54,158 nt of DNA from Rickettsiales bacterium (GTDB lineage: Bacteria; Pseudomonadota; Alphaproteobacteria; Rickettsiales; SXRF01): NCBI GenBank assembly GCA_005792635.1, contig SXRF01000102.1, forward strand, positions 1-54,158, given 5' to 3'. Positions 3,896 to 18,643 of this stretch are shown here, piece by piece (the stretch's first letter is position 1; every line of letters begins with the position of its first letter). The position numbers and the translations under genes were made by a program. The notes beneath the pieces were generated by a model. It ran no database searches, was not told the DNA's origin, and saw only the letters and a program-made list of their open reading frames with translations.

Positions 3896-6022
3896 TCATT
3901 TCCCCAATTTCAGGCTTTTCGCATTCACCGCGCAGATAATGGTGCTGCCCGCCATAAAGATCGCGGCCAGCGCAGGGTTAAGAACAATACCATAGCCGGT
4001 GTACAGCACACCCGCCGCCAACGGGATAGCAACCGTGTTGTAGCCGGTCGCCCATAGCAGATTCTGGATCATCTTGCTGTAGGTGGCGCGGGCAAGACCG
4101 ATGATCGCCACCACATCCAGCGGGTTGCTCTTTACCAACACGATATCGGCGGTTTCGATCGCCACATCCGTGCCTGCACCGATGGCGATGCCGACATCGG
4201 ATTGCGCCAGGGCTGGCGCGTCATTCACGCCGTCTCCCGTCATGGCGACTGTCAGGCCTCGCTGCTGTACTTCCTTAATTTTTGCGGCTTTTTCGTGCGG
4301 CAACACTTCCGCAATAGCTTCATCAAGGCCAATTTCCTTCGCTACCCAATCCGCCACCTGTTTATTGTCGCCGGTGAGCATGATGCAGCGTATACCCATT
4401 TCCTTGAGCCGCTGCATGGCTTCCTTCGATTCCGGCCGGATGATGTCAGCCAGCGCAATGGCACCTTTCAACTGATTATCAATCAGCACGAAAATTACGG
4501 TTTTGCCTTGGCCGGATAGTTCTTTGTAGCGCGGATCGTCCATCGGGATATTTTGTTCGCGTAAGTATCCGGGGCTAACAGCTTTGACGTTCCTGCCATT
4601 CACCGTGCCTTCCGCACCTTTGCCGGGGATCGCCCTGAAGTTCTCCACCTCCCACTTCTCGCTGGAGGATTTCACGATGCCTTTGGCGATCGGATGCTCG
4701 GAATGCGCTTCTACCGAGGCCGCATATGCCACCAGCTCTTCCTGCTTCATGCCGGCATCAAACAGCAGCACATCGGTGATGCCGAATTCGCCCTTTGTCA
4801 GCGTGCCGGTTTTATCGAAAATAATCGCCTGGATATTGCGGGCGGCTTCAAACGCGGTGCGGTCGCGGATCAGCAAGCCGTTCTGCGCGGCAATGGCGGT
4901 GGAAACCGCCACCACCAGCGGCACGGCCAGACCCAGCGCATGGGGACAGGCCACCACCATGACGCTTACCATGCGTTCCAGCGCGAAAGCGAGAGGCTGG
5001 TCGCTGAAAACAAGCCATGCCACCAGCGAGCCGGTGCCGATAAAAATCGCCGCCATTGTCAGCCAGAAGGCGGCACGGTTGGCGAGGTCTTGCGTTTTGG
5101 ATTTGCTTTCCTGCGCCTGTTTGACCAGTTCAATCACCTGCGATAGGAAGGATTCGCCGCCTGTCTTTGTGACCTCGACATAGATAGAGCCTTCGCCGTT
5201 GATCGAACCGCCGATCACGTTTGCGCCCGCACCCTTCGCCACCGGCTTGGATTCGCCCGTCAGCATGGACTCATTAAGTGACGTGCTGCCCTTGATGATT
5301 TTACCATCGGCAGGCACTTTTTCGCCGGGTTTGATCAACACCTGATCGCCAAGATGCAGCTGGTCGAGCGGGACATCCTGCACACTGCCGTCCGGCATGA
5401 CTTTATGCGCTTCCGATGGCATTAGACGCGCCAGCTGCTCCAGCGCTTCGCCCGCCCCCATGACCGACTTCATCTCGATCCAGTGGCCGAACAGCATGAT
5501 ATTGACCAGCGATACCAGCTCCCAGAAGAAATCCATCCCCGGCAGTCCAAGCACGATGGCGACGCTATAGAGATAGGCAGCGGTAATGGCGATGGCGATC
5601 AGCGTCATCATCCCTGGGAGCCTGCCTTTAAGTTCGGCGACCATGCCTTTGAAAAACGGCACTCCGCCGTAAAAGAACACCACGCTGGAAAGACCGGCCA
5701 ATAGATACATATCGCCCTTGAAGCGCCAGGAGTCTCCAAGCCCCAGGAACTCCTGAATCATCGGAGATAGCGCCAGCACGGGGAACATCAGCGCAAAGCA
5801 GATCCAGAATCGCTTCTTGTAATCTTCCACCATATGCGCGTGGTCGGCGTGGCTGCCGCCGTGACAGCCGGCGCTGCTGCCATGTCCTCCCGTAGGTTTA
5901 TCATGTTTCATGGCGGCATGGTCATGATGTGCGTGAGCATTGGCGGCTTTCTGCGCCTGCTTATGCGGGCAGTCATCGCCGTGCTTGGAATGATCCTCGT
6001 GTGCTGCGTGCGAATGCGCCAT
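3896..6022 (-). CDS. copB: Heavy-metal P1B-type ATPase, CopB-like (CPH motif, His-rich N-terminus)
   Basis: Motifs DKTGTLT, TGDN and GDGVNDAP; transmembrane motif VVACPHALGLA (CPH). His-rich N-terminus MAHSHAAHEDHSKHGDD...HAHHDHAAMKHD...GSHADHAH. The start was set to ATG 6022, which overlaps the upstream stop (TAATG), rather than the track start at 6109. Confidence 0.9.
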   Translation of the reverse strand: MAHSHAAHEDHSKHGDDCPHKQAQKAANAHAHHDHAAMKHDKPTGGHGSSAGCHGGSHADHAHMVEDYKKRFWICFALMFPVLALSPMIQEFLGLGDSWRFKGDMYLLAGLSSVVFFYGGVPFFKGMVAELKGRLPGMMTLIAIAITAAYLYSVAIVLGLPGMDFFWELVSLVNIMLFGHWIEMKSVMGAGEALEQLARLMPSEAHKVMPDGSVQDVPLDQLHLGDQVLIKPGEKVPADGKIIKGSTSLNESMLTGESKPVAKGAGANVIGGSINGEGSIYVEVTKTGGESFLSQVIELVKQAQESKSKTQDLANRAAFWLTMAAIFIGTGSLVAWLVFSDQPLAFALERMVSVMVVACPHALGLAVPLVVAVSTAIAAQNGLLIRDRTAFEAARNIQAIIFDKTGTLTKGEFGITDVLLFDAGMKQEELVAYAASVEAHSEHPIAKGIVKSSSEKWEVENFRAIPGKGAEGTVNGRNVKAVSPGYLREQNIPMDDPRYKELSGQGKTVIFVLIDNQLKGAIALADIIRPESKEAMQRLKEMGIRCIMLTGDNKQVADWVAKEIGLDEAIAEVLPHEKAAKIKEVQQRGLTVAMTGDGVNDAPALAQSDVGIAIGAGTDVAIETADIVLVKSNPLDVVAIIGLARATYSKMIQNLLWATGYNTVAIPLAAGVLYTGYGIVLNPALAAIFMAGSTIICAVNAKSLKLGK

Positions 6023-6705
6023 TATGCCGCCCCTTTGTGGTGAGTCTGTTGCGGCACCGCGCCGAGGAGCGGAAAGAAACGCGGCGTTACGGCCGCATAG
6101 CGCCGCCATTCTTCACCGAATTCCTTCTCAGCGATCGCTTCCTCTTTATAGGCAAGCCGCACATACATGAAGACCAGCACAGGGAACATCACCAGCGTCG
6201 GCAGCGTCGGCCATTGCAGCAGAAAACCCAGCATGATGGCGATGAACGCCACATATTGCGGGTGGCGCATACGGGCGTAAATGCCGGTGCAAGCGAGCTT
6301 GCCGCGCCGCTGGGCTTTCCATAGCACATGCCAGCTATAGGAAAGTGCCAGGAAGCCGCCGAAGATGAAGACGTTGCTCAGGATATGGAAAATATCCCAG
6401 TGCGGATCACCTTTCATGCCGAGCAGCGTATGAATCAAATGCCCGTTATTGTGCGACAGGAAGTCCACGCCGGGATACTTACTGGCAAGCCAGCCGGAAA
6501 ACAGGTAAATCGACAGAGGAAAGCCATACATCTCGACAAAAAGCGCGATGACAAAGGCGGAAAACGCGTTAAACGTCCGCCAGTCCGTTTGGGTTCGTGG
6601 CTTATAAAAGCTGTAGGCAAAGCCGATAAAAATGATCGAGTTGAGGATGACGAGTCCCCATAGACCATAAGCCGGTACGTCGCCAGCGTGTTCCATTAGT
6701 GGCAT
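6022..6705 (-). CDS. ICMT/PEMT-family membrane methyltransferase-like protein
   Basis: 227 aa and polytopic. The C-terminal segment GIYARMRHPQYVAFIAIMLGFLL...EE..L...FGEEWRRY is typical of the isoprenylcysteine carboxyl or phospholipid methyltransferase family. An alternative start at ATG 6696 overlaps the upstream stop (TAATG). Confidence 0.75.
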   Translation of the reverse strand: MPLMEHAGDVPAYGLWGLVILNSIIFIGFAYSFYKPRTQTDWRTFNAFSAFVIALFVEMYGFPLSIYLFSGWLASKYPGVDFLSHNNGHLIHTLLGMKGDPHWDIFHILSNVFIFGGFLALSYSWHVLWKAQRRGKLACTGIYARMRHPQYVAFIAIMLGFLLQWPTLPTLVMFPVLVFMYVRLAYKEEAIAEKEFGEEWRRYAAVTPRFFPLLGAVPQQTHHKGAA

Positions 6706-7013
6706 CCTCCCTTTTTATCTTGTTTCTTCTCGGTTTCGCGTTTCTTCTTCTCTTCCGGCGTGAGCGTAGAGGTATCTTCCTCGCTGTGCTGGTGCCCACC
6801 ATGCCCACCATGTCCGCCGTGCATAAAAATGTGCATCAGCGGGCAAAGCAGGATCAGTGCGAACGGCAAATAGCCGAGCAGATGCGCGCCGTGGCCTTGG
6901 TAAATCAAAAAGCCAAGTACGGAGACTGCGACGATGGTGGCAATGCCGGTGCGTGAGAGCAGCCAGCTTTCGCCATTGCTGCCTTTCTCCGAAGGGTGAT
7001 GGGAATGTTGCAT
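6696..7013 (-). CDS. DUF2933-like small membrane protein with a GH-repeat tail
   Basis: 105 aa with two TM segments and LILLCPLMHIFMHGGHGGHGGHQH. The family name is recalled from similar metal-island proteins. Confidence 0.6.
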   Translation of the reverse strand: MQHSHHPSEKGSNGESWLLSRTGIATIVAVSVLGFLIYQGHGAHLLGYLPFALILLCPLMHIFMHGGHGGHGGHQHSEEDTSTLTPEEKKKRETEKKQDKKGGCH

Positions 7014-7034
7014 AAAGATGTTCCTTTCTATTAT

Positions 7035-7373
7035 TTATTGCGCGGGGTGATGCTGCTTATGGTCTTCAGTGCTAACGCCAGAAGGGGCGGCTTTCTTCGC
7101 CGGTGAAGATTGCATCGGCGCGCCGCTTTGCTTCATCATTTTTTGGCACTGCTGCATGTCCATTTTCATGCCGTCTTTCATCATCCCGCCATCCATCATC
7201 TTCTGACAGCATGGGCACTGGCACTGCATTTTCCCTTCTTTCATCATTTCCTGACAATTTTTCATCATATCGCCCTGCATCATCCCGCCTTGCATCATGC
7301 CGTTGCCGGAAGTGTTGGTCTGCGTGCATGCTGCAAGCAGAAGCGCAAAAGTAGTAACAATCAGTTTTTTCAT
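7035..7373 (-). CDS. Met/Cys-rich periplasmic lipoprotein (putative soft-metal binding)
   Basis: The start was set to MKKLIVTTFALLLAAC (lipobox LLAAC). The mature part reads GMMQGGMMQGDMMKNCQEMMKEGKMQCQCPCCQKMMDGGMMKDGMKMDMQQCQKMMKQ. Confidence 0.6.
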   Translation of the reverse strand: MKKLIVTTFALLLAACTQTNTSGNGMMQGGMMQGDMMKNCQEMMKEGKMQCQCPCCQKMMDGGMMKDGMKMDMQQCQKMMKQSGAPMQSSPAKKAAPSGVSTEDHKQHHPAQ

Positions 7374-7410
7374 AATATTCTCCATGTAATGAGGGGTGAA
7401 AGAAATTGTG

Positions 7411-8160
7411 TCATCTCCGCCTGTCGCCAAACAGGTGGAGGAGTTGCAGAAAGAGGTTGATAAAATCGAGGTAAAGAGTCAGCGCGCCCATGATGACGAT
7501 CTTGCCCGCCCATTCGCCTTCGTTTGAAAGCTGATAGTACAGGCTCTTGAGTTTTTGCGTGTCAAAGGCAGTGAGCCCCACGAAGACCAATACGCCGATA
7601 ATAGAAACGGCGAATTGCAGGCCGGAGCTTTTAAGAAATAGATTCACCAGTGAGGCGATAATAATGCCCCACAGCCCCATCATCATAAACGACCCAAGTC
7701 CCGTTAGGTCGCGCTTAGTGGTGTAGCCATAGAGACTCATGCCGCCGAATGTGGCAGCGGTGATAAAGAACACGCGGGTAATGCTTTCACCGGTAAAGGT
7801 TAAGAATATCGTAGAAAGTGACAGCCCCATCAACGCCGCATAAATCCAGTAGCTGATCTGCGCGGCCATTAAGCTCATGCTCCTCAGCCCAAAACTGAGA
7901 TACATAACCAAGCCAAGCGGAGCAAACATCACGATCCATGCCAGCGGCTTCATGCCGGTGATCGCATTGCCCTCGATAGTGTACATGGCACTTAAGACCG
8001 CCTCGGACTGCGAGGAGAACAGCGCGATAATGCCGGTCAGCAACAATCCGCTCGCCATGTAATTATAAATTTTCAGCATGTAAGCGCGCAAACCTGCATC
8101 GAAACCTATGGCGGTCTGGCGAGTTGTACTGCGATGAGTGTGTAGTTCCTGGTAGGCCAT
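7411..8160 (-). CDS. Bax-inhibitor-1/YccA-family membrane protein
   Basis: 249 aa with about 7 TM segments. N-terminus ...GFDAGLRAYMLKIYNYMASGLLLTG and a C-terminal charged tail, typical of the BI-1/YccA family. Confidence 0.85.
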   Translation of the reverse strand: MAYQELHTHRSTTRQTAIGFDAGLRAYMLKIYNYMASGLLLTGIIALFSSQSEAVLSAMYTIEGNAITGMKPLAWIVMFAPLGLVMYLSFGLRSMSLMAAQISYWIYAALMGLSLSTIFLTFTGESITRVFFITAATFGGMSLYGYTTKRDLTGLGSFMMMGLWGIIIASLVNLFLKSSGLQFAVSIIGVLVFVGLTAFDTQKLKSLYYQLSNEGEWAGKIVIMGALTLYLDFINLFLQLLHLFGDRRR

Positions 8161-8161
8161 G

Positions 8162-8659
8162 TTATTCTCCTTTCACTACTGGGGATGGTTTATCCCTTGT
8201 TACGGAGGATTTCGTTTCATCCCTCAAAACTTTTTCTTCGCCGGTTCCGCGTGGCTCGATCTGCCAGATCATGGAGTCCATTCGCTCGCGCATCGCTTTC
8301 ATTTCGCCACTCATCTCCGGCATCGGGCAGTCTTTCTCCTTACCCATGCAATGCTGCATAGTAATCCGCATGTTTTCCATGCGTCTTTCCATATATTCGA
8401 GATCGGCGATGATCTGGCAATGCGCTGTCATATCTGGCATGCAGTGCTGGCTGGCGCGATGCGCCGCCATTTCTTCTTCCATCCGCTTCATTGCTTCGTT
8501 CATGCGACAATGAGCATCCATTCCCTGCATGCAGTGCGGCATGTTACCGCCATGCGTATCTGGCTTGTTCTCTTTGGCAAACGCCGCGTGATAACCAAAC
8601 ACCACGGCGATGATCACAAAAAAGAGGAAAGTATTAAAAAATGGTCGGCTGCTAGTCAT
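8162..8659 (-). CDS. Secreted helical His/Cys/Met-rich protein (repeated HCM..AHC motif)
   Basis: 165 aa. Signal peptide ...VVFGYHAAFA|KE. Motifs MPHCMQGMDAHC, QHCMPDMTAHC and MQHCMGKEKDCPMPEM. Confidence 0.55.
   Translation of the reverse strand: MTSSRPFFNTFLFFVIIAVVFGYHAAFAKENKPDTHGGNMPHCMQGMDAHCRMNEAMKRMEEEMAAHRASQHCMPDMTAHCQIIADLEYMERRMENMRITMQHCMGKEKDCPMPEMSGEMKAMRERMDSMIWQIEPRGTGEEKVLRDETKSSVTRDKPSPVVKGE
8198..8226 (-). promoter_or_regulatory. ECF-type promoter motif TGAGGGAT-N14-CGTAACA, upstream of the BI-1/YccA gene
   Basis: Exact match to the motif found at four other sites, with the same 14-nt spacing. It lies inside the 3' end of CDS 8162..8659, about 40 nt before ATG 8160. Confidence 0.55.
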
Positions 8660-9101
8660 GAGCGGTGCCTATTGCAGATGCTTTGTGTTTGGGGTAGAGG
8701 TGATCAAGAATAGGACACTGGCTAATCGGCGTATCACCGCCTGGGCATATTTTGGAAAGGTGCGTAAGTGCTTTCTCGACGCGCTCTAATTCTTTTACCT
8801 GTTTCTTTGCCTCGATAATTTTCTGGTGCGTCCGTTCCAGCATAGTGGCGCAAGTCGCATCCTTGCTCGATTTCAGGGTAAGCAGCCTTTTAATCTCGGC
8901 GAGGGTAAAACCAAGCTCCTTCGCGTTCTTGATGAACATCACCTGACGTACGCTGTTTGCATCGTATAGTCGGTAGCCAGACTTGGAACGGCGTTCCGCC
9001 TGCACTAGCTTAAAGCGTTCATAGTAGCGGATCGTGTCGATGCGAACACCGCACATTTCCGCCAATTTTCCGATAGTAATCGTGGCATGGTTCTTTGTCA
9101 T
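8652..9101 (-). CDS. MerR-family metal-responsive transcriptional regulator (three-Cys type)
   Basis: 149 aa. HTH IGKLAEMCGVRIDTIRYYER. It has a Cys at the start of the dimerisation helix (KDATCATML) and a C-terminal CPGGDTPISQCPILDHL loop. Confidence 0.85.
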   Translation of the reverse strand: MTKNHATITIGKLAEMCGVRIDTIRYYERFKLVQAERRSKSGYRLYDANSVRQVMFIKNAKELGFTLAEIKRLLTLKSSKDATCATMLERTHQKIIEAKKQVKELERVEKALTHLSKICPGGDTPISQCPILDHLYPKHKASAIGTAHD

Positions 9102-9109
9102 AAGTCTGC

Positions 9110-9141
9110 ACCCTACACCTTGGACTATAGTGAAAGGTCAA
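9110..9141 (-). promoter_or_regulatory. MerR-type promoter/operator (TTGACC-N20-TAGGGT with an internal dyad)
   Basis: Minus strand reads TTGACCTTTCACTATAGTCCAAGGTGTAGGGT. The 20-bp spacer is characteristic of MerR-activated promoters. The -10 lies 8 nt before ATG 9101. Confidence 0.6.
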
Positions 9142-9328
9142 TCACTAATCGCTTGTCGGCGAATAATAATTGACTTCGATCAAATCTTCCTCGGGTTTCT
9201 GTACTTGGGCGACTTGCTTTTGAGGCGGCTTCCTTAAATAATGCTCAACCTCATTCATGGTCGGGACAGAGGGAAGCGATCGCTTGGATGGGCTTTCTTT
9301 TAGAGCAGTCTGTTCCTTCAACATATCG

Positions 9329-9505
9329 CTAACCGCAGCAACATTTGTTCTTGGATTTCTTTTCAACGGGATGCTCGGCAGCCTGCGCTGGTTTTTCCGA
9401 ACAATGCTCTTGCGGCTTAGAGATATCCTTTTGAGTAGCGGCTTGAGGCGATTTCATGTGATCGCAACATTCAGGCTTAGTAGGGTTTGATGAAGTATTT
9501 TGCAT
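9329..9505 (-). CDS. 58-aa Cys-cluster peptide (below the ORF-track cut-off)
   Basis: Hand translation: MQNTSSNPTKPECCDHMKSPQAATQKDISKPQEHCSEKPAQAAEHPVEKKSKNKCCCG*. GGAGGAG lies 6 nt upstream of the ATG, and a MerR-type promoter lies about 35 nt upstream. Confidence 0.45.
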   Translation of the reverse strand: MQNTSSNPTKPECCDHMKSPQAATQKDISKPQEHCSEKPAQAAEHPVEKKSKNKCCCG

Positions 9506-9540
9506 GTGTAACTCCTCCGTTGGTGGTTGAAAACAGGCTG

Positions 9541-9572
9541 ACCCTACACCCTGGACTATAGTACAAGGTCAA
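9541..9572 (-). promoter_or_regulatory. MerR-type promoter/operator (TTGACC-N20-TAGGGT)
   Basis: Minus strand reads TTGACCTTGTACTATAGTCCAGGGTGTAGGGT, nearly identical to the site at 9110..9141. Confidence 0.6.
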
Positions 9573-9590
9573 GCGTTTTCTGATAAGGAC

Positions 9591-9986
9591 TTACATCATG
9601 CCCATAAGCATCATCTTCGGTGCTAGAAAGGCAAAGAAAACGCCTATAAAATAGGCTGATACCGAAATATAAAAAATCCAGCCGCTGATTCTCCGAAGCC
9701 GCGCACAGGCTTTTGCTTGCGCCGGATCAGCGAGGCATGGAGCATTCCGGTTAAGATAGCGCAGTGCTCCAGAAATCGTGAGCATAATCCCTGCGAAAAT
9801 AAACAGCGGGGTCTTGTGTTCGGAAAGCCATACCAATCCTGGCATGGCACTAAACAATCCAATCAGGGCTGCACCAGCACCCAGCGTCACGAGCAGTGCT
9901 GGTAGCGCGCAACACAATAATGTGCTCATTGAAGCAAAGAGCGCGACGGTAGGAACAACTCCGCGGTGCAGCTTTGCCTTATGCAT
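9591..9986 (-). CDS. MerT/MerC-like membrane protein with a CC..P motif
   Basis: About 131 aa with about 4 TM segments. The first TM carries LLCCALPALLVTLG, like mercuric-ion transporters. There is a second Cys pair, CLADPAQAKAC. ATG 9986 overlaps the upstream stop (TGATG). Confidence 0.6.
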   Translation of the reverse strand: MHKAKLHRGVVPTVALFASMSTLLCCALPALLVTLGAGAALIGLFSAMPGLVWLSEHKTPLFIFAGIMLTISGALRYLNRNAPCLADPAQAKACARLRRISGWIFYISVSAYFIGVFFAFLAPKMMLMGMM

Positions 9987-10273
9987 CAATTCACCCGTTC
10001 GATTTTTACCACGTCATAGCCTGCATTTTTTACGAGCGTCGTGAGCGTTGCGTCATCAATCGTTTTGCTCGGCTGAAAATCGATGGTCACCAGCTTGGCA
10101 TCAAGATCAACGATGGTGTCTTTTACGGTATCGAGCTTTCCAAACGTGCGCTTAATACCCTCCGCACAGAAAGCGCACACCAAGCCGTTAACGCTGATTT
10201 TTGCTGTTTCTGCGAATGCCGGAGAGCCGATGGAAGTGGCCAGCATTGCTGTGATAAGAATAAATTTACGCAT
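9986..10273 (-). CDS. Periplasmic heavy-metal-associated (HMA) domain protein, MerP-like
   Basis: 95 aa. Signal peptide ...SPAFA|ET followed by VNGLVCAFCAEGI (CxxC) in a ferredoxin-like HMA pattern. AGGAGG RBS. Confidence 0.8.
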   Translation of the reverse strand: MRKFILITAMLATSIGSPAFAETAKISVNGLVCAFCAEGIKRTFGKLDTVKDTIVDLDAKLVTIDFQPSKTIDDATLTTLVKNAGYDVVKIERVN

Positions 10274-10283
10274 AATTTCCTCC

Positions 10284-11324
10284 TTAAAATGTGAGATTCC
10301 AATTAAACATGACCGTATTATCGCTGCTGTAACCGACCTCGGCCAGAATGTTGCCTTTGAACAGCCGCACGAGCGGCGTAACTACGACTTCATCTTCCAT
10401 TCCAGGCTGGTGCTCCACTTGCAGCATCAACCATGTATGCAAATCATCGTATTTACCGATATAGGGCGCTACCCCGACACGGGCTTTTTGTGAAAATTGC
10501 TTGTCAATGTCCCCCGCATAAAGTGCCTGATTCTCGTAAGAGACAAAAATTCTTCTGGTTTCGTAATCAGCTAAAATTCCTGCCCATGCCGCTGGCTCAG
10601 TGTTGCTGCCTTGTTGTGCCGCTCCTGCGCCGGAGAGAAAAAAGAGGTTTCCCTGTGCATCCGGCATATTCCAGCGATTCACCAGATAGTTAAATTGTAG
10701 GCTGTGTACCCAATACTCCTCTTCGCGCATCCACTCGTTGCTGGTACCTATGGAATAATTGGCGGTTGGTGCATAGACGATATGAAGAAGATTTTCCGAA
10801 CCATTGTTCTCTTGCATAACCATCCAACCGCCCGCGTAAGGAATTGGCTTGGCCTCGGCCACCTGCGGCAAAGAGAAAAAAGCTGCGATGCTGACAATCA
10901 ATGCGGCAATCCCAGCTTTAGCCTTCCGGTTGATATGTTCGAGGATGGGGCAGCAATCAAGCGGACTGTCATCGGCGGGACACTGTTCGGCCAGTTGTTT
11001 TAGCACCTTTCTGATTTCTTTGAGTTCAAGAATGCGAGTTTCAGCTTGCTTTATTTTTGCTTCAGTATGTTTGAGAATCTCAGCGCAGGTTGCTTTATCG
11101 GAACCTTTAAGTGCCAGCAGCTGGCGAATTTCATCCAACGTAAAGTTCAACTCCTTTGCGCCGCGGATGAAACGAACAAGCCTCACCGCTTCAGGGCTAT
11201 AAAGACGGTACCCTGCTGGTGAGCGCGATTCAGCGGAAATCAACTTCAGTCTTTCATAATAACGCAGAGTTTCTGCGCTGACTTCAGTGATTTCCGCCAA
11301 TTTTCCGATGGTGAGCTGTTTCAT
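10284..11324 (-). CDS. MerR-family regulator fused to a TM/signal-like segment and a ~190-aa beta-rich OMP-like domain
   Basis: 346 aa. Residues 1-~135 are MerR (IGKLAEITEVSAETLRYYER, KATCAEIL, CPADDSPLDCCPILEH). Then comes NRKAKAGIAALIVSIAAFFSLPQVAEA|KP. Alternating-hydrophobic strands follow, ending ...VMFNWNLTF. Confidence 0.7.
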   Translation of the reverse strand: MKQLTIGKLAEITEVSAETLRYYERLKLISAESRSPAGYRLYSPEAVRLVRFIRGAKELNFTLDEIRQLLALKGSDKATCAEILKHTEAKIKQAETRILELKEIRKVLKQLAEQCPADDSPLDCCPILEHINRKAKAGIAALIVSIAAFFSLPQVAEAKPIPYAGGWMVMQENNGSENLLHIVYAPTANYSIGTSNEWMREEEYWVHSLQFNYLVNRWNMPDAQGNLFFLSGAGAAQQGSNTEPAAWAGILADYETRRIFVSYENQALYAGDIDKQFSQKARVGVAPYIGKYDDLHTWLMLQVEHQPGMEDEVVVTPLVRLFKGNILAEVGYSSDNTVMFNWNLTF

Positions 11325-11344
11325 ATTTTTCCCTCGATTTTTAC

Positions 11345-11376
11345 AGCATACACCTTTGAGTATACTACAAGGTCAA
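11345..11376 (-). promoter_or_regulatory. MerR-type promoter/operator (TTGACC-N20-TATGCT)
   Basis: Minus strand reads TTGACCTTGTAGTATACTCAAAGGTGTATGCT. It lies about 20 nt upstream of ATG 11324. Confidence 0.6.
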
Positions 11377-11390
11377 GGGATATTTTGTTG

Positions 11391-12308
11391 TTATTTTACA
11401 ATTACCCCTAGTGGCGCGAACAGGTCTTTGCCATCAATGCGTGTTTGCACGAACAGTTTCACAAAACCGGCTTTTTCAGGCTCGATATGGAATTGCAACT
11501 CTGGCCCACCGCGCTCGGATTCCGAAGTGGGTTCCTTGCCCATTGGATGAATGTGAAGGATGGTATTGCCGTCCTCACCAAAGCCTACGATATGCGCGAA
11601 TGCGCCCATCACCGGCTGTAAGTTTGATACGGGCTTTCCTGCCTTATCGGTCACTACCACTTTCCCCATGACGGGTTTCTCGGCTACCAGCGGCTCATCA
11701 AAGCTGAGAGCAAATTGATAGCCACCGGCTTCTGACTTACTGATAAGCGTTTTATCCATCTCGTGAGAGGTAATCGACGACTTGCCGATATCGGTTTTAA
11801 TATATTCCTGCTTTCCGGTGGTCGCAGGGGTTACGTCCGTCCAGATTCGGTAGCTTGAATCTTTCTTTGGCGTGAAATCAAACGCCCATTCACCCGCCTT
11901 GTCGGTGGGTGTGGGGTGGATATGGTGGTAATCGGTAAGCGTAGGATCAATCACCAGCAAATGCACACGCTGCGTATGCACCACGTTGATTGCTTCTGGT
12001 GTTACAGGCTTGCTGTCCTTAGTAGAGGCAATTTGCATGAGCATTTTGGTGGTTTTGCCCGCTTTCAGTTCGCCCTGTGGCAGCACTTTCACCGCAAGCG
12101 TTTTGGCAACTTCACCATGCTCATGAGTGCCTTCTTTTTTGCCATGATCCATACCTTGCATGGAATCGGCTGATTTTTGCATGTGCGGGCAGTCTTTACC
12201 CGGCATGCAATGTTTCATTTCACCGCCCATTTCACCGTGATCGTGGGCAAAGGCGGGCGCGACAATCGCTAGTGAACTTCCGATTAAAAGTGCGTGCAGT
12301 AATTTCAT
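11391..12308 (-). CDS. Secreted protein with a His/Met/Cys-rich N-terminus and two beta-rich domains, unknown function
   Basis: 305 aa. Signal peptide ...APAFA|HDHGEMGGEMKHCMPGKDCPHMQK. It contains HHIHP and ILHIHPMG motifs. Confidence 0.55.
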   Translation of the reverse strand: MKLLHALLIGSSLAIVAPAFAHDHGEMGGEMKHCMPGKDCPHMQKSADSMQGMDHGKKEGTHEHGEVAKTLAVKVLPQGELKAGKTTKMLMQIASTKDSKPVTPEAINVVHTQRVHLLVIDPTLTDYHHIHPTPTDKAGEWAFDFTPKKDSSYRIWTDVTPATTGKQEYIKTDIGKSSITSHEMDKTLISKSEAGGYQFALSFDEPLVAEKPVMGKVVVTDKAGKPVSNLQPVMGAFAHIVGFGEDGNTILHIHPMGKEPTSESERGGPELQFHIEPEKAGFVKLFVQTRIDGKDLFAPLGVIVK

Positions 12309-12336
12309 AAATTCTCCGTTGAGTTTGTTGTTGATT

Positions 12337-12771
12337 TTATATGCGGTTGGTCATTTCTTCGCATATGTGCGAGATGCGATTGGCGTGATCTGCCCAGCCT
12401 TTGCCTTCTTTCTGCTTTTTCTCAGCTACTTTAGCAGCGCAGGTTGCCGCCAGATCTTTTGGTGGCAACTTTTCATCAGCGTCTGCCGTGGTCAGGTCAT
12501 CCATCTGACGGCAGAGCGATTTCATTTCGAGAATTTCAGGTGACCGCTTAAGCCTTTGCCGTTGCTGAATACCGCGACGCCCAGTGGTGTTGATTTTTTG
12601 CAGGCTGGCAGGCCACTCTGCTTCATTCAGGCACGCAAGGCGCAAGGTCTCTTTGCGTTCTGCTTGAGTGGCGGTTTGTGATAATTTCTGATCAAGTGTC
12701 AATGGTGGAGTAAATTGTGCCGCACACGCTGATAACAGCAGTGTTGTGGCTAATAGTACCGTAGTTTTCAT
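12337..12771 (-). CDS. Lipoprotein, unknown function
   Basis: The start was set to MKTTVLLATTLLLSAC (lipobox LLSAC). An ECF-type promoter motif lies upstream. Confidence 0.5.
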   Translation of the reverse strand: MKTTVLLATTLLLSACAAQFTPPLTLDQKLSQTATQAERKETLRLACLNEAEWPASLQKINTTGRRGIQQRQRLKRSPEILEMKSLCRQMDDLTTADADEKLPPKDLAATCAAKVAEKKQKEGKGWADHANRISHICEEMTNRI

Positions 12772-12810
12772 GCCATTCTCCATGCGTACTGTTTATGTTT
12801 TCGCACTTCG

Positions 12811-12839
12811 TAGTACGCAGGAGAATCGGTTATCCCTCA
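12811..12839 (-). promoter_or_regulatory. ECF-type promoter motif TGAGGGAT-N14-CGTACTA
   Basis: Exact motif and spacing. It sits between the stop of 12844..13329 and the lipoprotein gene. Confidence 0.6.
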
Positions 12840-12843
12840 AAAA

Positions 12844-13329
12844 TTATTTTGCTGCACTTTCAACAAGTTTAAGTGCGCCTTGGCTTTTCTTGAGTTCGGA
12901 TAAGGTTTTTTCCAGATTCTTATCATGCGTGCCAATGTGGAAATCCGTGGTGGTTTTTACGAGCTGTTTAAGTGCGCCGAGCAAGCGGACTTTCTTTGCC
13001 GGCTCCATACTTTCCGCTTCTTTTTCAAGAAACTTTGCCGCTTCTCCGATATGGACAGTCACATCGTGCAGCTGATCCATGACTTTGCCATTGGCAAATA
13101 AGTCCGCTTTTTGCTTGTTTACGGCTTCGTCCATAAAGGATACGCCGTCACGCATCACTTTAAGAGCGCCATCTTTGGTGGTTATTTTGGTAGCCTCATC
13201 ATGCACAGCGGAAGGTTCGTGCTGGCCGTGCTGTTCTGTTTTTGAATGATCTTCACCTTCATGCGCCAGCGCAGGTTGCTGCAAGCCAGCGAAGGCCAGT
13301 ATCGCAGTGGTAAGCAGTAGTTTCTTCAT
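12844..13329 (-). CDS. Periplasmic helical protein with a His-rich N-terminus, unknown function
   Basis: 161 aa. Signal peptide ...QQPALA|HEGEDHSKTEQHGQHEPSAVHDE, and the rest is predicted helical. It lies immediately downstream of the RND pump gene. Confidence 0.55.
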   Translation of the reverse strand: MKKLLLTTAILAFAGLQQPALAHEGEDHSKTEQHGQHEPSAVHDEATKITTKDGALKVMRDGVSFMDEAVNKQKADLFANGKVMDQLHDVTVHIGEAAKFLEKEAESMEPAKKVRLLGALKQLVKTTTDFHIGTHDKNLEKTLSELKKSQGALKLVESAAK

Positions 13330-13344
13330 GTCATTCTCCTTGGG

Positions 13345-16300
13345 TTAATGGGTAATTGCCGCTGGTAGCAAAGTAGCGACGGGTTTCTTGCCGAATTTCC
13401 AGAACACCAGCGGGCGCACGGTGAGATCGAGCAGCGTGCTGGAAAATAATCCGCAGAAAATCACCACGGCAACAGGATGCAGGATTTCACGACCCGGCTC
13501 ATCGGCGGCGATAATCAACGGAATCAGTGCAAGGGATGCGGTGAGCGCGGTCATCAATACGGGGATAATCCGCTCGGATGTGCCGCGATAAATCATGGCG
13601 ATGTCGAAGCGTTCGCCCTCATGTTCCATCAGGTGCAGGTAATGCGCGATCATCATGATGCCGTTACGGGCGGCAATGCCGGTGAGCGTGACAAAGCCCA
13701 CCATCGTTGCAATCGAGAACACGCCGCCGGAGAGCCATACGCCAATCACCGCACCGATAAAGGCCAACGGTATTGATACCATCACCTGAAGCGCAAGGTT
13801 TGCACTTTTGAAATGCACGAACAGCACCATGAACATGCCCGCCAGCGAAAACAGGCTTAATACGGCAATCAAGCGCGAGGCACTGGCTTGGCTTTCAAAC
13901 TGTCCGCCATAGGTAATGTAGTAGCCTTGTGGTAGCTGCACTTTGCTATCAATCGCTGCCTGTACTTTCTTCACCACGCCCACCAGATCACGCTCGGCGA
14001 CGTTGGCCTGAATCACAATGCGCCGCTGGGCGTTTTCGCGGTTGATGATGTTCGGCCCTTTGGCATCCTGCACGTTGGCAATCGCTTGCAGCGGCACCAC
14101 ATTACCATCCCTGGTATCGACAGGAATTTGCTTGATGGCTTCAATGTCGCTCCGTGCCGCATCGGAAAGACGCATCACGATGTCATAGGTACGCTGGCCA
14201 TCCAGCACTTGCCCCACGGCCTTGCCCTGCATGGCAAGCTCGGCATATTCCGCCGCTTCGCCGGAAAGGAGGCCGTAGGTAGCAGCTTTCTCACGATCAA
14301 ACAGCACATGCACTTGTGGAATAAGCACCTGCTTTTCCACCGACAGATCCACCACTCCTTCCACTTCGCTCATGGCTTGGCGGATTTCTTCGGCTTTAGC
14401 ACGAAGCACATCCAAATCCGTGCCGAACAGCTTGATGGCGATCTGCGCCCGCACACCGCTCATCATGTGGTCAATGCGGTGCGAAATAGGCTGGCCGATA
14501 TTCACCGCGATTCCGGGAATCTCATCCAAGCGGCTGCGTATATCGGCAAGAATGACAGCGCGAGAACGCTTGGATTCTTTCAACTCCACCTCAATCTCAC
14601 TGGAATGCACGCCTTCTGCGTGGTCATCGCGTTCTGCGCGGCCTGTGCGCCTTCCGGTTTCGGTGGCTTCCGGCACTTGGCGGATAAGGTTTTCCGCAAT
14701 CGTGCCGATACGGTTGGATTCAGCAAGGCTGGTTCCAGGTGGGGTCAGGATGTTTATCGTCACCGAGCCTTCATTGAATTGTGGCAGGAATTCCTTGCCG
14801 AAGAACGGCACCATCGCCAGCACTGCAAATGTCATGACAGCAACCGCTGTCAGCACAGTTTTGCTATGCGGAAAAGCAAAATTCAGGACACGGGTTTGAA
14901 GCGATTTAATTTTCCGTAGCAGCCAGCCATCATGTTCTGCACTCATGCGTTTCATGTTCGGCAATAGATACGAGCAAAGGGCTGGGGTGAGCGTGAGCGA
15001 TACGAACAGCGAAGCAATGATGGACGTAATGTAGGCAATACCCAGCGGTAGGAAGATTTTTCCTTCGATACCATCCATTGCAAAAAGCGGGATGAATACC
15101 AGCACCACAATGATGGTGGCGAATACGATGGAGTTCCGCACCTCGCTGGATGCCTCATAAATCACTTGCAGTGGGTTGCGGGGTTTTTCGGCATGGCGGT
15201 TTTCACGCAAGCGGCGGAAGACGTTTTCCACATCCACAATCGCATCATCCACCAGTTCGCCAATTGCCACGGCCAAACCGCCCAGCGTCATGGTATTGAT
15301 ACTCATGCCAAACATATTGAACACGATAGCCGTCAATACGAATGAAAGCGGAATGGCGGTGAGCGTGATAAAGGTGGTGCGGAAGTTAAGGAGAAACAGG
15401 AACAGCACGATAGCAACCAGTATCGCACCATCGACCAAGGCTTTCTCTACATTTTTGATTGCCCGCTCGATGAATGTGCCTTGCTTGAAGATTTCACCGT
15501 GGATTTTTACGCCTTCGGGCAGGTTTTTTTGAATGCTGGCAAGCTCGGCTTCAATCGCTTTGGTGAGTTTGATGGTGTCTGCGCCGGGTTGTTTCTGAAC
15601 AGAGAAAATCACGGCAGGACTACCATTGACGCTGGCATCGCCGCGCTTTGCCAGAGGGCCACCAAGTTTAATATCCGCTACCTGATCGAGCGTGAGCGGT
15701 GTCGGACTGCCATTTTCTTTCGGCAACGGCGATTTTGCCAGATCATCAAGTGTTTTTACTCTGGCGATATTGCGGATTAAGCCTTCCTGATAATCAGAAA
15801 GCAGAAAGCCGCCTGTAGCATTGATATTGGAACCAGCGATGGTTGCTTCCACATCATGCAGCGTCACGCCATAATTTTTAAGTTTCAGCGGGTCAACCAA
15901 CACCTGATATTGTTTCAGATCGCCGCCAATCACTGATACTTGCGAAATGCCGGAAATGGAAAGCAAGCGGTTACGAATATCCCACTCCGCAATCGTGCGT
16001 AAATCCATGCCACTGATTTCAGGATTTTCGGAAGTTAGCCCCACCAGCATGATTTCCCCCATAATGGAAGAAATCGGCCCCATGACAGGGCGTGCGTCCT
16101 GTGGCAGCGTTTCCTGCGCCTGTTGCAGCTTCTCCGCGACAATCTGGCGTGCCGTGTAAATATCGGTATCCCAGCCGAATTCTACCCATACAATCGAAAG
16201 CCCGATAGCTGATGCCGAGCGCACGCGCTCAACGCCCGTGGAGCCGTTCACCGCCGTTTCAATCGGCCATGTCACCAGTGCTTCCACTTCCTCCGGCGCA

Positions 16301-16467
16301 AGCCCTTCGGCTTCTGTGAAGATGGTTACGGTAGGACGATTCAGATCGGGAAACACATCCACTGGCAGCTTGCTGATGACAAACACGCCGTACACCAGCA
16401 GCATGGCAGAAGCGGCAACCACCAGAAGCCTGTTTTTTAGCGAAAACTGTATGATAGAGTTGAGCAT
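13345..16467 (-). CDS. Heavy-metal-efflux RND permease (CusA/CzcA family)
   Basis: 1040 aa. N-terminus [17 protein letters not shown]...[29 protein letters not shown] and a 12-TM RND architecture. TM4 reads [20 protein letters not shown]. Confidence 0.92.
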   Translation of the reverse strand: [1040 protein letters not shown]

Positions 16468-16469
16468 GG

Positions 16470-17423
16470 CTAATCCTTATGCTCGTCTTTTTTAGGTTCG
16501 GCTGATTTAGCGAATTGCAGCTGATAATTTCCCACCGTCACCACTTCTTCATCAGGGAACACGCCTTCCAAAACTTCACGATCATTGCTGAATTTTGCGC
16601 CGAGCTTCACGCTACGCCGCTCGAAATTATTGCCGCTACGGACAAACACAAACTGTTCGCCGCTTTCACCGAGGATTGCTTTCACCGGCACGGTTAGAAT
16701 GTCGGCGGGCGTGGTGATCTCAATCGACAACACCACCTGCATGTTTGCCAGCAATCGACGGTCAGGATTGTTTACTAGCGCATAGACATTGAACGTGCGG
16801 CTTCCGCGATCATACGCGCCATCCATACGCTGCACCGTTCCCGCAAGAGGTTCACCGCTTATCAAGTTGCTGGATACGCGCACCTTTTGCCCCACCTGAA
16901 TCTTGCCAACTTCCGGTGTTTCATACATGACACCGCGCACCAATATCTCAGACGGATCACCCACTTCCATCAACGCCGCTTCTGGCGTGACGGACTGCCC
17001 CAGCACCACGCTTTGTTTGGTGACAAAGCCGGTCAGCGGCGATGGAATGGCAACTGGCGAACTTCCAACAAAGATCGGCTGTATGGTAAGCAATCTTTGG
17101 CCTTTGGTGACTTTCTCTCCCACCTTGACGTGAATCTCAGATACACGGCCAGCAGCGCGGGAAGTAATGATTGCCTGACGTTCAGGCAGGAATTCAACGA
17201 GGCCATTCACATCTACGGAGGCGGCACGCGGGGCGATCACCGCTTTTACTGTCTGGATTCCGAGGTTGTTGATGGCTGTATCAGAAAGCGTTACCGTACT
17301 AACAACGCCCGAACCTCCCTCGGTACCGGGTGCTTCAGCATGATCTTCTCCCGCATGGGCGAAGGCTTGCCCTGCAAGCCCCATACTTCCCAGCAATGCG
17401 AGTGCGATAAACAGCTTCTTCAT
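16470..17423 (-). CDS. RND periplasmic adaptor (membrane fusion protein)
   Basis: 317 aa. Signal peptide ...GQAFA|HAGEDH. It has a barrel-sandwich/beta-barrel MFP pattern and is sandwiched between the OMF and RND genes with overlapping or adjacent junctions. Confidence 0.85.
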   Translation of the reverse strand: MKKLFIALALLGSMGLAGQAFAHAGEDHAEAPGTEGGSGVVSTVTLSDTAINNLGIQTVKAVIAPRAASVDVNGLVEFLPERQAIITSRAAGRVSEIHVKVGEKVTKGQRLLTIQPIFVGSSPVAIPSPLTGFVTKQSVVLGQSVTPEAALMEVGDPSEILVRGVMYETPEVGKIQVGQKVRVSSNLISGEPLAGTVQRMDGAYDRGSRTFNVYALVNNPDRRLLANMQVVLSIEITTPADILTVPVKAILGESGEQFVFVRSGNNFERRSVKLGAKFSNDREVLEGVFPDEEVVTVGNYQLQFAKSAEPKKDEHKD

Positions 17424-18643
17424 TTAATTTCCTCCAGCTTTCCGCCTAGTTCTAATTCCAGTTGCCCGCGTGCGTTCACGGCTTGCGCCAGCGCATCCAG
17501 TGCCTCATTCTCGCTGGTCAGTAATTTTTCGCGCACCTGCCAGACTTCAAGCGCATCGGCTTGGCCTTGGCGGAACATGCTGCGGGTGAGTTCATACGAT
17601 TTTCGGTATCCGGGCAGGATACTCTCAAAATAACTATCGGCGCGGCCTTGCAGCGCGGCGGCACTTTGTTGTAATTCTCCAATCACCTCTTTTTGGGGCA
17701 GGTTCACGAACAAATCTGCTTCCGATTTCACTTGGCGTAATTCTGCATTGGCACGTTTGCGTTCGGCATCGTTCTGATTCCAGAGGGGAATACGAAGGGC
17801 AATGCCTACGCCATAGGATTTTTCATCCCCATCGGGTGAGCGTGAGTAGATCAGGCGAGGCCCGATTTCCGGTAGGGCGGCATCCTGCTCTGCAACGCTT
17901 AAGCGGCGTTCTGCGGCATTAATACGACTTTTTACCACGTTACGGAGGTTGGATTGCTCTTTAGCGAAGGCCAGCAATTTCTCGGTGTCCTGCGGCACAT
18001 CAACAAAAGACGGGCGTTGCAATTCAGCCAGCTGGTAACTGCGCCCCGTCAGTCGCGCCAGATCGGTACGCACCTGCCGTAGTTCTGCTTCCACAGCGTT
18101 GGAATCAGCGCGAAGTTTTGCAGCATCAGAGGAAAAGAGGTGCGAGGCGGCGGGGCTGGTCTGGCCTTGTCCTGCGGATGTACCCACCAGTTTCTTCATT
18201 TTCTCCGCATCATCGGCATAATTCTCATAGAGCTTTTTACGCTCGGAAAGCAGCCATACCTGTGTGTACAGCACGGTGGTTTCGTTAATCACTTTCAGGA
18301 TTTCATATTTCTGTTCGGTGCTGGCGACATTGGATAATGCTTCGGCATAGCCGTAGCGTGCGCCGGAAAGCTGGGAAAACTTCAAAGGCTGGGTGAGTTC
18401 AACATCTGCGCCTGTGCCGTTCTCACCGCTGGCGCGGGTGGCATCGATATTGAATTCCGGATTATCCAGCAGCTTGGTTTCCGTGGCAGTTGCCAGCTTA
18501 TCTTCATAGTCACGCTGGACACGGAACAGGCTGGTATTTTTCTGCAAGCTCTCTCTAATCACCTGATCGAGCGTGATGGATTCGGCGAAAGCGGCAGCGG
18601 GGAAAGCCGCGCTGATGGCTATGATGGCGATAATTTTCTTCAC
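17420..18643 (-). CDS. TolC-family outer membrane factor of the RND system
   Basis: 407 aa with a signal peptide and two-repeat OEP helices. GTG start with a GGGGAGA RBS. It overlaps the MFP start by 4 nt. Confidence 0.85.
   Translation of the reverse strand: MKKIIAIIAISAAFPAAAFAESITLDQVIRESLQKNTSLFRVQRDYEDKLATATETKLLDNPEFNIDATRASGENGTGADVELTQPLKFSQLSGARYGYAEALSNVASTEQKYEILKVINETTVLYTQVWLLSERKKLYENYADDAEKMKKLVGTSAGQGQTSPAASHLFSSDAAKLRADSNAVEAELRQVRTDLARLTGRSYQLAELQRPSFVDVPQDTEKLLAFAKEQSNLRNVVKSRINAAERRLSVAEQDAALPEIGPRLIYSRSPDGDEKSYGVGIALRIPLWNQNDAERKRANAELRQVKSEADLFVNLPQKEVIGELQQSAAALQGRADSYFESILPGYRKSYELTRSMFRQGQADALEVWQVREKLLTSENEALDALAQAVNARGQLELELGGKLEEIK

Follow-up and report, generated by a model that had tools for sequence, protein, structure and literature searches.

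The 54,158-nucleotide (nt) stretch of Rickettsiales bacterium contig SXRF01000102.1 (assembly GCA_005792635.1; hereafter the window) contains an open reading frame (ORF) in which a MerR-type metal sensor runs, without interruption, into what is predicted to be an internal Sec-type signal peptide and an outer-membrane beta-barrel. The ORF begins with ATG, lies on the minus strand at 10284..11324 and encodes 346 amino acids (aa). Its parts, and those of the 66-nt intergenic region upstream, are as follows:

11345..11376, minus strand: MerR-type promoter/operator of the fused operon (-35 TTGACC at 11371-11376, 20-nt spacer, -10 TATGCT at 11345-11350)
11352-11373, minus strand: 22-bp dyad ACCTTGTAGTATACTCAAAGGT in the spacer
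11331-11335, minus strand: Shine-Dalgarno (SD) sequence GAGGG
10920..11324, minus strand: MerR-type metal-sensor domain, residues 1-135, with a winged helix-turn-helix (wHTH), a dimerisation helix, and Cys80, Cys115 and Cys124-Cys125 in the metal-binding loop
10851..10928, minus strand: predicted internal Sec-type signal peptide, residues 133-158, with n-region RKAK, h-region AGIAALIVSIAAFF and c-region SLPQVAEA
10287..10850, minus strand: predicted mature 12-stranded outer-membrane beta-barrel domain, residues 159-346, with a beta-signal-like C-terminus ...FNWNLTF
10284-10286, minus strand: stop codon

An earlier note, made from the letters of this stretch alone, had described a complete MerR regulator in residues 1-135, a signal-peptide-like segment and a domain of about 12 strands with an aromatic outer-membrane-type C-terminus, all in one frame, expressed from its own MerR-type promoter and leading MerP/MerT-like genes. 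The ORF, the domain matches and the predicted fold agree with this description, as do the TTGACC-20 nt-TATGCT promoter with its dyad and the two genes that follow, at 9986-10273 and 9591-9989. The note had offered three readings: a membrane-tethered regulator like ToxR whose beta domain is periplasmic, a pro-protein processed by signal peptidase, or a recent fusion or assembly artefact. We consider it likely that the locus is a conserved natural fusion encoding a two-product precursor, which signal peptidase I would cut, such that the barrel is sent to the outer membrane and the MerR half autoregulates the operon. Within this reading, four elements are inferred from sequence: that the chain is cut, what becomes of MerR, which way transport runs and which metal is involved.

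The first half is a complete MerR-type sensor. Residues 5-136 match Pfam MerR_1 (1.2e-15), MerR-DNA-bind (4.2e-14) and MerR (4.5e-13), and a Foldseek search of the PDB with the N-terminal half returned CadR, CueR and PbrR, identifying an N-terminal MerR-type wHTH. Similarly, the helix at residues 80-113 in the AlphaFold2 model, the MerR-DNA-bind match and three invariant cysteines mark the dimerisation helix and metal loop. The nearest solved relative is the Bacillus Hg(II)-MerR 4ua1 (E 1.5e-25), with cysteines of which C80, C115 and C125 align (C79/C114/C123 by hand count from the HMMER alignment); we take these to be the three Hg ligands. The helix-turn-helix residues and these three cysteines are invariant in 48 fused homologues. 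Cys rather than Ser at position 80 presumably points to a divalent thiophilic ion, by the distinction between CueR and ZntR/MerR. Scores against the NCBIfam equivalogs for ZntR, MerR, CueR and CadR were 89-112 bits, each under its curated cut-off (ZntR PRK09514, 111.8 vs 143; MerR TIGR02051, 109 vs 150.85; CueR, 98.7 vs 147.4; CadR-PbrR, 89.5 vs 151.45). As none of the cut-offs for the MerR-Hg, ZntR, CadR/PbrR and CueR equivalogs was reached, the metal of the fused MerR is not assignable to a subfamily. The first 135 residues have the fold and the three Cys ligand positions of the MerR, ZntR, CadR, PbrR and CueR sensors, but whereas those are soluble proteins of ~130-150 aa, the fused protein runs on into a signal peptide and barrel.

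The second half would belong to a different compartment. In the AlphaFold2 model built on the 48-sequence alignment, the MerR fold scored ~90 in the predicted local distance difference test (pLDDT), residues 126-149 formed a helix of low confidence, and residues 166-345 formed 12 beta strands that scored above 90. The mature C-terminal domain modelled separately (pLDDT 93.6; predicted TM-score 0.84) had the same 12 strands, joined by very short turns, and the structure prediction that the earlier note had called for returned a membrane beta-barrel, with no sign of a soluble non-barrel fold. All of the best 50 Foldseek matches in the PDB were outer-membrane barrels, headed by KdgM 4pr7 (TMq 0.54, TMt 0.58) and NanC 2wjq, followed by intimin/invasin, OmpG, autotransporter beta-domains and LpxR, with the copper channel PcoB at rank 50. 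At the level of the predicted model, the domain's membership of the outer-membrane beta-barrel fold class is established. The protein ends ...VMFNWNLTF, and at least 90% of homologues keep this final Phe (F346). An aromatic-ended pattern such as ...FNWNLTF is that expected of the beta-signal recognised by the beta-barrel assembly machinery (BAM), and the even number of strands in the model, together with the terminal aromatic residue, is as predicted for a BAM-dependent barrel. The likeness to KdgM and NanC is one of fold only: sequence identity to these and the other fold matches was ~11%, residues 137-346 matched no Pfam (including KdgM) or NCBIfam family, and PDB sequences searched with a profile built from the barrel alignment gave no match, such that membership of the KdgM/NanC porin family is not established. 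These porins share 12 strands, small size and short loops with the window barrel; however, they conduct acidic sugars, whereas the window's family sits in metal operons.

The junction of the two halves is open throughout (...CCPILEHINRKAKAGIAALIVSIAAFFSLPQVAEA|KPIPY), reading ...C124-C125-PILEHIN-RKAK-AGIAALIVSIAAFF-SLPQVAEA|KPIPYAGG, with a predicted signal peptidase I site at A156-E-A158|K159-P160. This architecture recurs widely. Searched against 5.8 billion clustered proteins, the full-length sequence matched 114 clusters, which covered at least 93% of the query at 41-72% identity. Nearly every one was 328-370 aa long (one was 403 aa). Across 48 aligned sequences, the invariant or nearly invariant positions were the helix-turn-helix residues, C80, C115, C125, A156, A158, K159-P160 and ~35 positions in the barrel. 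Hence the fusion is real and conserved, and is not an artefact. A frameshift error in sequencing or assembly that joined two genes, or a pseudogene, might have been suspected, as split and fused versions of the locus differ very little at the junction, and most homologues come from metagenome assemblies. However, with over 110 distinct fused clusters drawn from NCBI, JGI, ENA and Logan, several of them seen on 11-22 independent contigs, linkers that vary in length and sequence yet are always in frame, and both halves under purifying selection, such an origin is barely conceivable. Public databases label the fused proteins either ‘heavy metal-responsive transcriptional regulator’ or ‘MerR family transcriptional regulator’; for the one stand-alone barrel cluster that was checked, the label is ‘hypothetical protein’. 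The architecture is therefore unrecognised in databases, and current annotation hides half of the protein.

The barrel itself is far more widespread than the fusion. When the mature barrel was used for an exhaustive HMMER scan, 635 representative clusters were recovered (E up to 1e-3). Among the best 150 of these, all but two of the full-length matches were proteins of 200-260 aa, mostly 205-220, and only two representatives were fused. In the stand-alone proteins the match starts at residue ~16-45, straight after a signal peptide, the precursors beginning Met-(K/R)-hydrophobic core-A-x-A|(K/R)P(V/I)SY. Genomic context was taken from 80 loci on one-genome-per-species contigs; the fetched loci are designated by L-numbers. 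Most came from uncultured Alphaproteobacteria, including metagenome-assembled genomes (MAGs) labelled Rickettsiales, Micavibrio and Azospirillaceae, with others from Verrucomicrobiota/Chthoniobacterales, Bdellovibrionales and a few Gammaproteobacteria, as well as isolated bins labelled Planctomycetia, Thermodesulfobacteriota and, in one case, Patescibacteria. The fused state was found at 16 of the 80 loci, separate merR and barrel ORFs, with merR immediately upstream, at four, and a barrel without merR within 4 kb at ~60. Hence where merR adjoins the barrel gene the two are mostly fused; the orthologues are not always split, and no stop and start were found at the junction, the two outcomes that would have counted against the earlier note.

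The few split loci reveal the origin of the fusion. L062 and L080 have overlapping merR stop and barrel start codons (ccATGAaa), while in L066 the two ORFs are 3 nt apart. The split MerR ends ...CCPILEHISKKAKP* and the split barrel precursor begins MKSIAIAAFASFFWIAAADA|KPISY, where the fused window protein has ...CCPILEHINRKAKAGIAAL...AEA|KPIPY; correspondingly, the MerR tail ...HISKKAKP* of L062 and L080 matches the fused ...HINRKAKA. By this comparison the fused gene is a translationally coupled merR and barrel pair minus its stop and start, the ATGA overlap of the split loci indicating fusion of adjacent genes, and the basic MerR tail would now act as the n-region of the barrel's signal peptide. 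The third reading of the earlier note was therefore right in proposing the fusion of merR to an outer-membrane protein gene, as the split ATGA precursors indicate, but the more than 110 diverged fused clusters contradict its being recent or artefactual. One MAG, JANYBV01, carries three paralogous merR-barrel-merP-merT operons, of which L047 is fused and L062 and L080 are split, providing a natural comparison of the two states.

Loss of the stop and start raises the question of how the barrel is translated. The earlier note had seen no ATG or GTG at the n-region, and the only in-frame alternative starts at the window junction are indeed deeper, a TTG at L142 and a GTG at V155; both fall within the h/c-region, and so neither could start a functional signal peptide. 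Across the fused loci, four have no in-frame ATG, GTG or TTG in the junction at all, and in the remainder these codons are mostly inside the h-region and mostly without an SD sequence. As the junctions of fused loci have no in-frame start codon in common, the barrel must come from the full-length chain. The converse proposal, that the barrel precursor is made from a start inside the junction with the full-length chain a minor product, draws on an SD-like GGAAGG (in ...AACCGGAAGGCT...) upstream of an in-frame ATT (I139) and the TTG (L142) in the window, where a TTG at -17 was flagged with a weak SD sequence. It seems highly improbable, and was rejected as a general mechanism, given the want of a conserved start at the n-region: most candidates would yield a truncated signal peptide without its basic n-region, and with no stop codon in the way, ribosomes translating MerR run on into the barrel in any case. 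L006 is an exception among the fused genes: an ATG lies in frame 28 codons ahead of its cleavage site, from which a good signal peptide (MSKPNKKQNFKKSLILAFLFLMPLSAQA) would be encoded, and internal initiation may be possible in that lineage.

Four features of the junction argue that the internal signal peptide still serves as such. Firstly, its cleavage motif has been kept. In each of the 48 aligned homologues a K/R-rich n-region and an uncharged core lead to A-x-A, which is followed by the invariant K159 and P160; A156 and A158 are each conserved in at least 90% of the set. Among the fused loci (n = 20), position -1 is Ala in 20/20, position -3 is Ala in 19/20 and Ser in one, and the residue at -2 differs between loci (E, Q, I, D). 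Signal peptidase I as a rule needs small residues at -3 and -1 and leaves -2 free, and the -3 and -1 positions are at least as strict in the fused proteins as in stand-alone precursors with a recognisable junction, of which 53 have Ala at -1 and 34 have Ala at -3. Had cleavage become irrelevant, this motif should have eroded, hence its retention speaks for its use. Secondly, the uncharged core has not grown into a typical anchor of ~20 residues, having a median length of 17 residues in fused proteins against 18 in stand-alone signal peptides, and only 13-14 in one fused subgroup. Thirdly, the first barrel strand starts seven residues past the A-x-A site, leaving ~16 residues between the helix and strand 1; this tether cannot bridge the inner and outer membranes, and so the barrel could reach the outer membrane only if cut free. 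Fourthly, as described above, the barrel has no separate start. The segment has the attributes of a Sec signal peptide in its basic n-region, signal-peptide-length core, small -3 and -1 residues and absence of Pro at +1; it departs from one in its position, beginning at residue 133 behind the MerR domain rather than at the N-terminus.

These features bear directly on the possibility that the protein is an uncleaved one-component regulator, akin to ToxR or CadC, with a permanent transmembrane (TM) anchor and an attached periplasmic beta sensor. An N-in DNA-binding domain, a single hydrophobic segment and an extracytoplasmic domain do resemble such regulators, AlphaFold2 draws residues 126-149 as a helix, and a census of TM-containing transcription regulators already includes MerR (386) and MerR_1 (350) domains among 50,302 proteins, although it does not discuss them. 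Nevertheless, this alternative appears quite improbable. The C-terminal domain matches outer-membrane barrels only, with its terminal Phe conserved, and shares ancestry with stand-alone proteins that are exported by means of cleavable signal peptides; A-x-A is under selection in the fused forms, in some of which the uncharged core is as short as noted above; ~16 residues from the helix to strand 1 are too few for the periplasm; and, to our knowledge, beta-barrels do not integrate into the inner membrane. Hence of the three earlier readings the pro-protein cut by signal peptidase is best supported, by the kept A-x-A and the exported stand-alone homologues, while the ToxR-like regulator with a periplasmic beta domain is unlikely, given a membrane barrel whose first strand follows so closely on a site under selection. 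ToxR, CadC and TcpP have their DNA-binding domain at the N-terminus, fixed to the inner membrane through one hydrophobic segment, as the MerR half would be if anchored. However, those proteins combine an OmpR-type wHTH with a true TM anchor and a soluble sensor domain in the periplasm, whereas the fused protein has its sensor site, the MerR Cys loop, in the cytoplasm, and a barrel expected to be cut off. Membership of the ToxR/CadC type was accordingly rejected on the MerR-type DNA-binding domain, the signal-peptide-like segment with A-x-A and the outer-membrane barrel.

The regulatory half also shows the marks of use. The 66 nt upstream of the ORF hold TTGACC, the 20-nt spacer, TATGCT and the SD sequence, with the promoter ending 20 nt ahead of the ATG; a 19-20 bp spacer with a dyad operator is the hallmark of MerR-family promoters, to which this putative promoter conforms. 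The promoter and dyad, with consensus CTTGACCTTGGAGTATACTCCAAGGTGTAGnnT, lie directly upstream in 19/19 fused loci with a readable upstream region, whereas the CTTGACCTTGGAGTATACTCCAAGGTGTAGnnT-type operator is absent from stand-alone barrel loci (4/55 match a loose pattern). In most fused loci there is no other merR within 4 kb. From the presence of the operator at all 19 readable fused loci, its absence from stand-alone loci and the usual lack of another merR, autoregulation of the operon by the fused protein through this putative operator is strongly implied. The MerR domain is moreover the best-conserved portion of the protein, being 84-88% identical to those of L038, L047 and L035 where the barrels are only 49-51% identical (87% and 51%, respectively, in the comparison of the window with L038). 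This conservation, the invariant helix-turn-helix and Cys residues, the operator in 19/19 fused loci and the general absence of another merR together suggest that the MerR half works as a regulator.

The window has three dyad sites where none is expected by chance. The two further copies, the gene for a soluble MerR paralogue and the other genes of the operon are located as follows:

9986..10273, minus strand: MerP-like periplasmic HMA protein, 95 aa, with signal peptide and CAFC motif; second gene of the operon
9591..9989, minus strand: MerT-like inner-membrane protein, 132 aa, with one Cys pair (CC) in TM1 and another after TM2; third gene of the operon
9541..9572, minus strand: second copy of the MerR-type promoter, TTGACC-20-TAGGGT, dyad at 9548-9569
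9110..9141, minus strand: third copy of the MerR-type promoter, TTGACC-20-TAGGGT, dyad at 9117-9138, 8 nt upstream of the ATG of the MerR paralogue
8652-9101, minus strand: soluble MerR paralogue, 149 aa, 52% identical to the fused MerR domain

The position of the third copy implies that the paralogue is a near-leaderless, autoregulated second sensor by its sequence, and there may be cross-talk between it and the fused MerR. The second copy and a good SD sequence precede a 58-aa Cys-rich ORF at 9329-9505 on the minus strand (MQNTSSNPTKPECCDHMKSP...KNKCCCG), the product of which may be a small metal-sequestering peptide of the same regulon.

The genes of the operon are hardly spaced, the MerT-like start overlapping the MerP-like stop. 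The MerP-like protein matches Pfam HMA (7.7e-08) and scores 38 bits, under the cut-off, against TIGR02052 MerP; the MerT-like protein scores 22.4 bits against Pfam MerT (cut-off 32.9) and 22 bits against NF010314 MerT. A MerP-like gene follows the barrel gene in essentially all of 85 loci, with a MerT-like gene downstream in most, and the order barrel, MerP-like, MerT-like is nearly universal, being found also in L005 and in L003, where the three-gene operon stands amid housekeeping genes. No MerA-like ORF was found among the scanned ORFs of the window or the called genes of L001, L003 and L005. The window shares the 20-bp-spacer dyad promoter and downstream MerP- and MerT-like genes with the merR-merT-merP core of mer (mercury resistance) operons, although its membership of these is not supported, as no MerA was seen nearby and the MerT and MerP matches are below their cut-offs. 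We know of no described mer operon with an outer-membrane component. To judge by sequence and order, the barrel, MerP-like and MerT-like proteins plausibly form a relay across the outer membrane, periplasm and inner membrane. That the barrel gene comes first in MerP/MerT-like operons suggests that metal relays of the mer type can have an outer-membrane component of their own.

These elements can be assembled into a pathway. The MerR domain would be translated and fold in the cytoplasm, whereupon what was formerly the barrel's N-terminal signal peptide, now following MerR's basic tail, would insert N-in/C-out at the Sec translocon, an orientation that the basic n-region fits, whether targeting is co- or post-translational. 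The barrel segment would be translocated, signal peptidase I would cut after A156-E-A158, and the released 188-residue domain would pass to BAM and become a 12-stranded outer-membrane barrel, forming with the MerP-like and MerT-like proteins an envelope-spanning route for a thiophilic divalent metal. MerR would be left with the signal peptide as a C-terminal membrane anchor, its metal loop ~8 residues from the membrane. There, or freed by a site-2 protease (S2P) or signal-peptide peptidase, it would bind the dyad of its own promoter and, when loaded with metal, activate the operon.

It is conceivable, if doubtful, that the fusion is itself adaptive, in that a tail-anchored MerR would receive envelope metal by thiol hand-off, or that its release by S2P would couple transcription to barrel export. 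The hand-off would proceed from the barrel through MerP and the cytoplasmic Cys pair of MerT to the MerR Cys loop, such that an anchored MerR dimer at the translocon or MerT site would sense envelope, not bulk cytoplasmic, metal. It would require a MerR-type activator to work from the membrane on its own transertion-tethered promoter, of which we know no example in the MerR family.

Alternatively, cleavage may occur while the MerR half is a dispensable passenger, with soluble MerR paralogues regulating the operon and the fusion a neutral accident of the ATGA overlap, at which a small deletion or indel would suffice to join the genes. This is unlikely. The window's soluble paralogue does have the same operator type at its own promoter, and split and fused versions do coexist in one MAG and interleave in trees, but a dispensable domain would not be expected to be the best-conserved part of the protein, with invariant helix-turn-helix and Cys residues, nor would most fused loci without another merR within 4 kb, such as L003, be expected to have a near-perfect operator.

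Several of the same observations also weigh against processing into two functional products, together with others. For Sec and the signal recognition particle (SRP), a signal peptide that comes after a folded domain of 135 residues is an unusual substrate, and for every family member processing is a prediction from sequence. The absence of merA nearby clouds the physiological sense of inducible uptake. In the barrel, the odd and even faces of the predicted strands separate clearly in hydrophobicity in strands 5-12, and not in 1-4; there is no conserved Cys or His in the lumen; and M170 is the only Met invariant across the aligned fused and stand-alone barrels, M168 being invariant only among the 48 fused homologues. 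The shared operator type means that the fused MerR need not be the sole regulator, the fused L047 occurs in the same MAG as the split L062 and L080, and fused and split states interleave in neighbour-joining (NJ) trees, with key nodes at 57-78% bootstrap; the fusion could be selectively neutral rather than advantageous.

The same trees indicate a mosaic history. The window MerR domain groups with those of L035, L047 and L038 (93% bootstrap), whereas the window barrel is nearest that of L006 (63% identity), then stand-alone barrels (56-58%), although the L006 MerR is only 41-42% identical to that of the window. Conversely, L005 and L006 have MerR domains that are 76% identical (100% bootstrap), and barrels that are 43% identical. 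All four combinations of MerR type and barrel type occur, implying either recombination at the junction or repeated fusion. The MerP-like gene did not move along with the barrel: this was rejected because the MerP-like proteins are 51-54% identical to those of all comparators, leaving only the barrel discordant. Split forms nest within fused lineages with moderate support (57-78% bootstrap), and the interleaving of states would suit independent fusions, but for the same modest values at the key nodes. Hence the fused state has been maintained over a long divergence, and probably re-created or shuffled.

Each mechanistic part of this proposal is of a known kind. The type-II membrane regulator RsiV is cut by signal peptidase at an A-x-A site, and then by the site-2 protease RasP (PMC4183432), and RseP is reported to remove remnant signal peptides (PMC8144685). 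The RsiV/sigma-V system has a cytoplasmic regulatory domain, a TM segment, an A-x-A cut and clearance of the stub by S2P, the same order as in the fused protein. However, RsiV is an anti-sigma factor with lysozyme-gated cleavage and a soluble extracytoplasmic receptor part, whereas the released part of the fused protein would itself be an outer-membrane protein, and its cleavage is probably constitutive. The alphaproteobacterial FbcH provides a likeness of another sort. Thony-Meyer, James and Hennecke reportedly described in 1991 (PNAS 88:5001) how this cytochrome b/c1 polyprotein of Bradyrhizobium japonicum yields two mature proteins from one ORF via an internal signal-peptide-like sequence. 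The fused gene similarly has one ORF, an internal signal sequence and two predicted products, but whereas those of FbcH are subunits of one inner-membrane complex, the products here would be a DNA-binding cytoplasmic regulator and an outer-membrane barrel, lodged in the two compartments that lie farthest apart. Literature searches found no described fusion of MerR to an outer-membrane protein, and no outer-membrane component of mer-like operons; the architecture, a polyprotein of regulator, signal peptide and outer-membrane barrel, appears to be undescribed.

Were this reading correct, one bacterial polypeptide would supply both a DNA-binding regulator and an outer-membrane protein, parted by the general secretion machinery, and the few bacterial polyproteins known to be divided at an internal signal peptide would gain another member. 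The gene would also be a natural test case for the handling by Sec and SRP of a signal peptide behind a folded domain, and would provide the MerR family with its first membrane-coupled protein of defined origin. As the split, fused and stand-alone states all occur in nature today, they can be compared directly, and the barrel family, at 635 representative clusters, is both widespread and unannotated.

The fused operon lies within a metal-handling island, all on the minus strand, which occupies 3896-8659 and 11391-18643 of the window:

3896-6109, minus strand: P-type ATPase
8162-8659, minus strand: Met/His/Cys-rich 165-aa protein
11391-12308, minus strand: His-rich 305-aa protein, one of three family-less proteins
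13345-18643, minus strand: RND-MFP-OMF efflux system
within 3896-8659 or 11391-18643, minus strand: ICMT-like, DUF2933 and Bax1-I proteins

Beyond 22.8 kb there is a polysaccharide/O-antigen-type cluster, and then RNase E. A megablast of window positions 8000-13400 against plasmids found no match.

In L043 (3875-4579), the barrel gene has an in-frame stop, with two adjacent ORFs matching residues 43-167 and 1-67 of the hit, and is likely a pseudogene or an assembly error. Stand-alone barrel genes show other forms of upstream sequence. The stand-alone operons of Verrucomicrobiota/Chthoniobacterales, which lack merR, have a conserved ~80-nt leader directly upstream of the barrel ATG (L022, L034, L040, L042, L046, L048, L049, L054-L056, L060, L065, L067, L069, L071, L074 and L076; for example, L042 3850-3935). 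Its outer helix, GATCCAAAGAGC...GCTCTTGGATC, has a 3' arm that ends 1-3 nt ahead of the ATG, and encloses an inner hairpin, GGTGTGCC...GGCAYGCC, with variable insertions in the loop in L049 and L055. Five of its 19 predicted pairs have compensatory changes, and it had no match in Rfam at gathering thresholds. The leader is a candidate cis-regulatory RNA, possibly a metal riboswitch. In L010, L015, L063 and L078, the stand-alone barrel genes are preceded by a palindrome, TATACCC(c)tataGGGGTATA, in a promoter-like position; it presumably resembles CsoR-type operators, a likeness that hints at copper control of some stand-alone operons.

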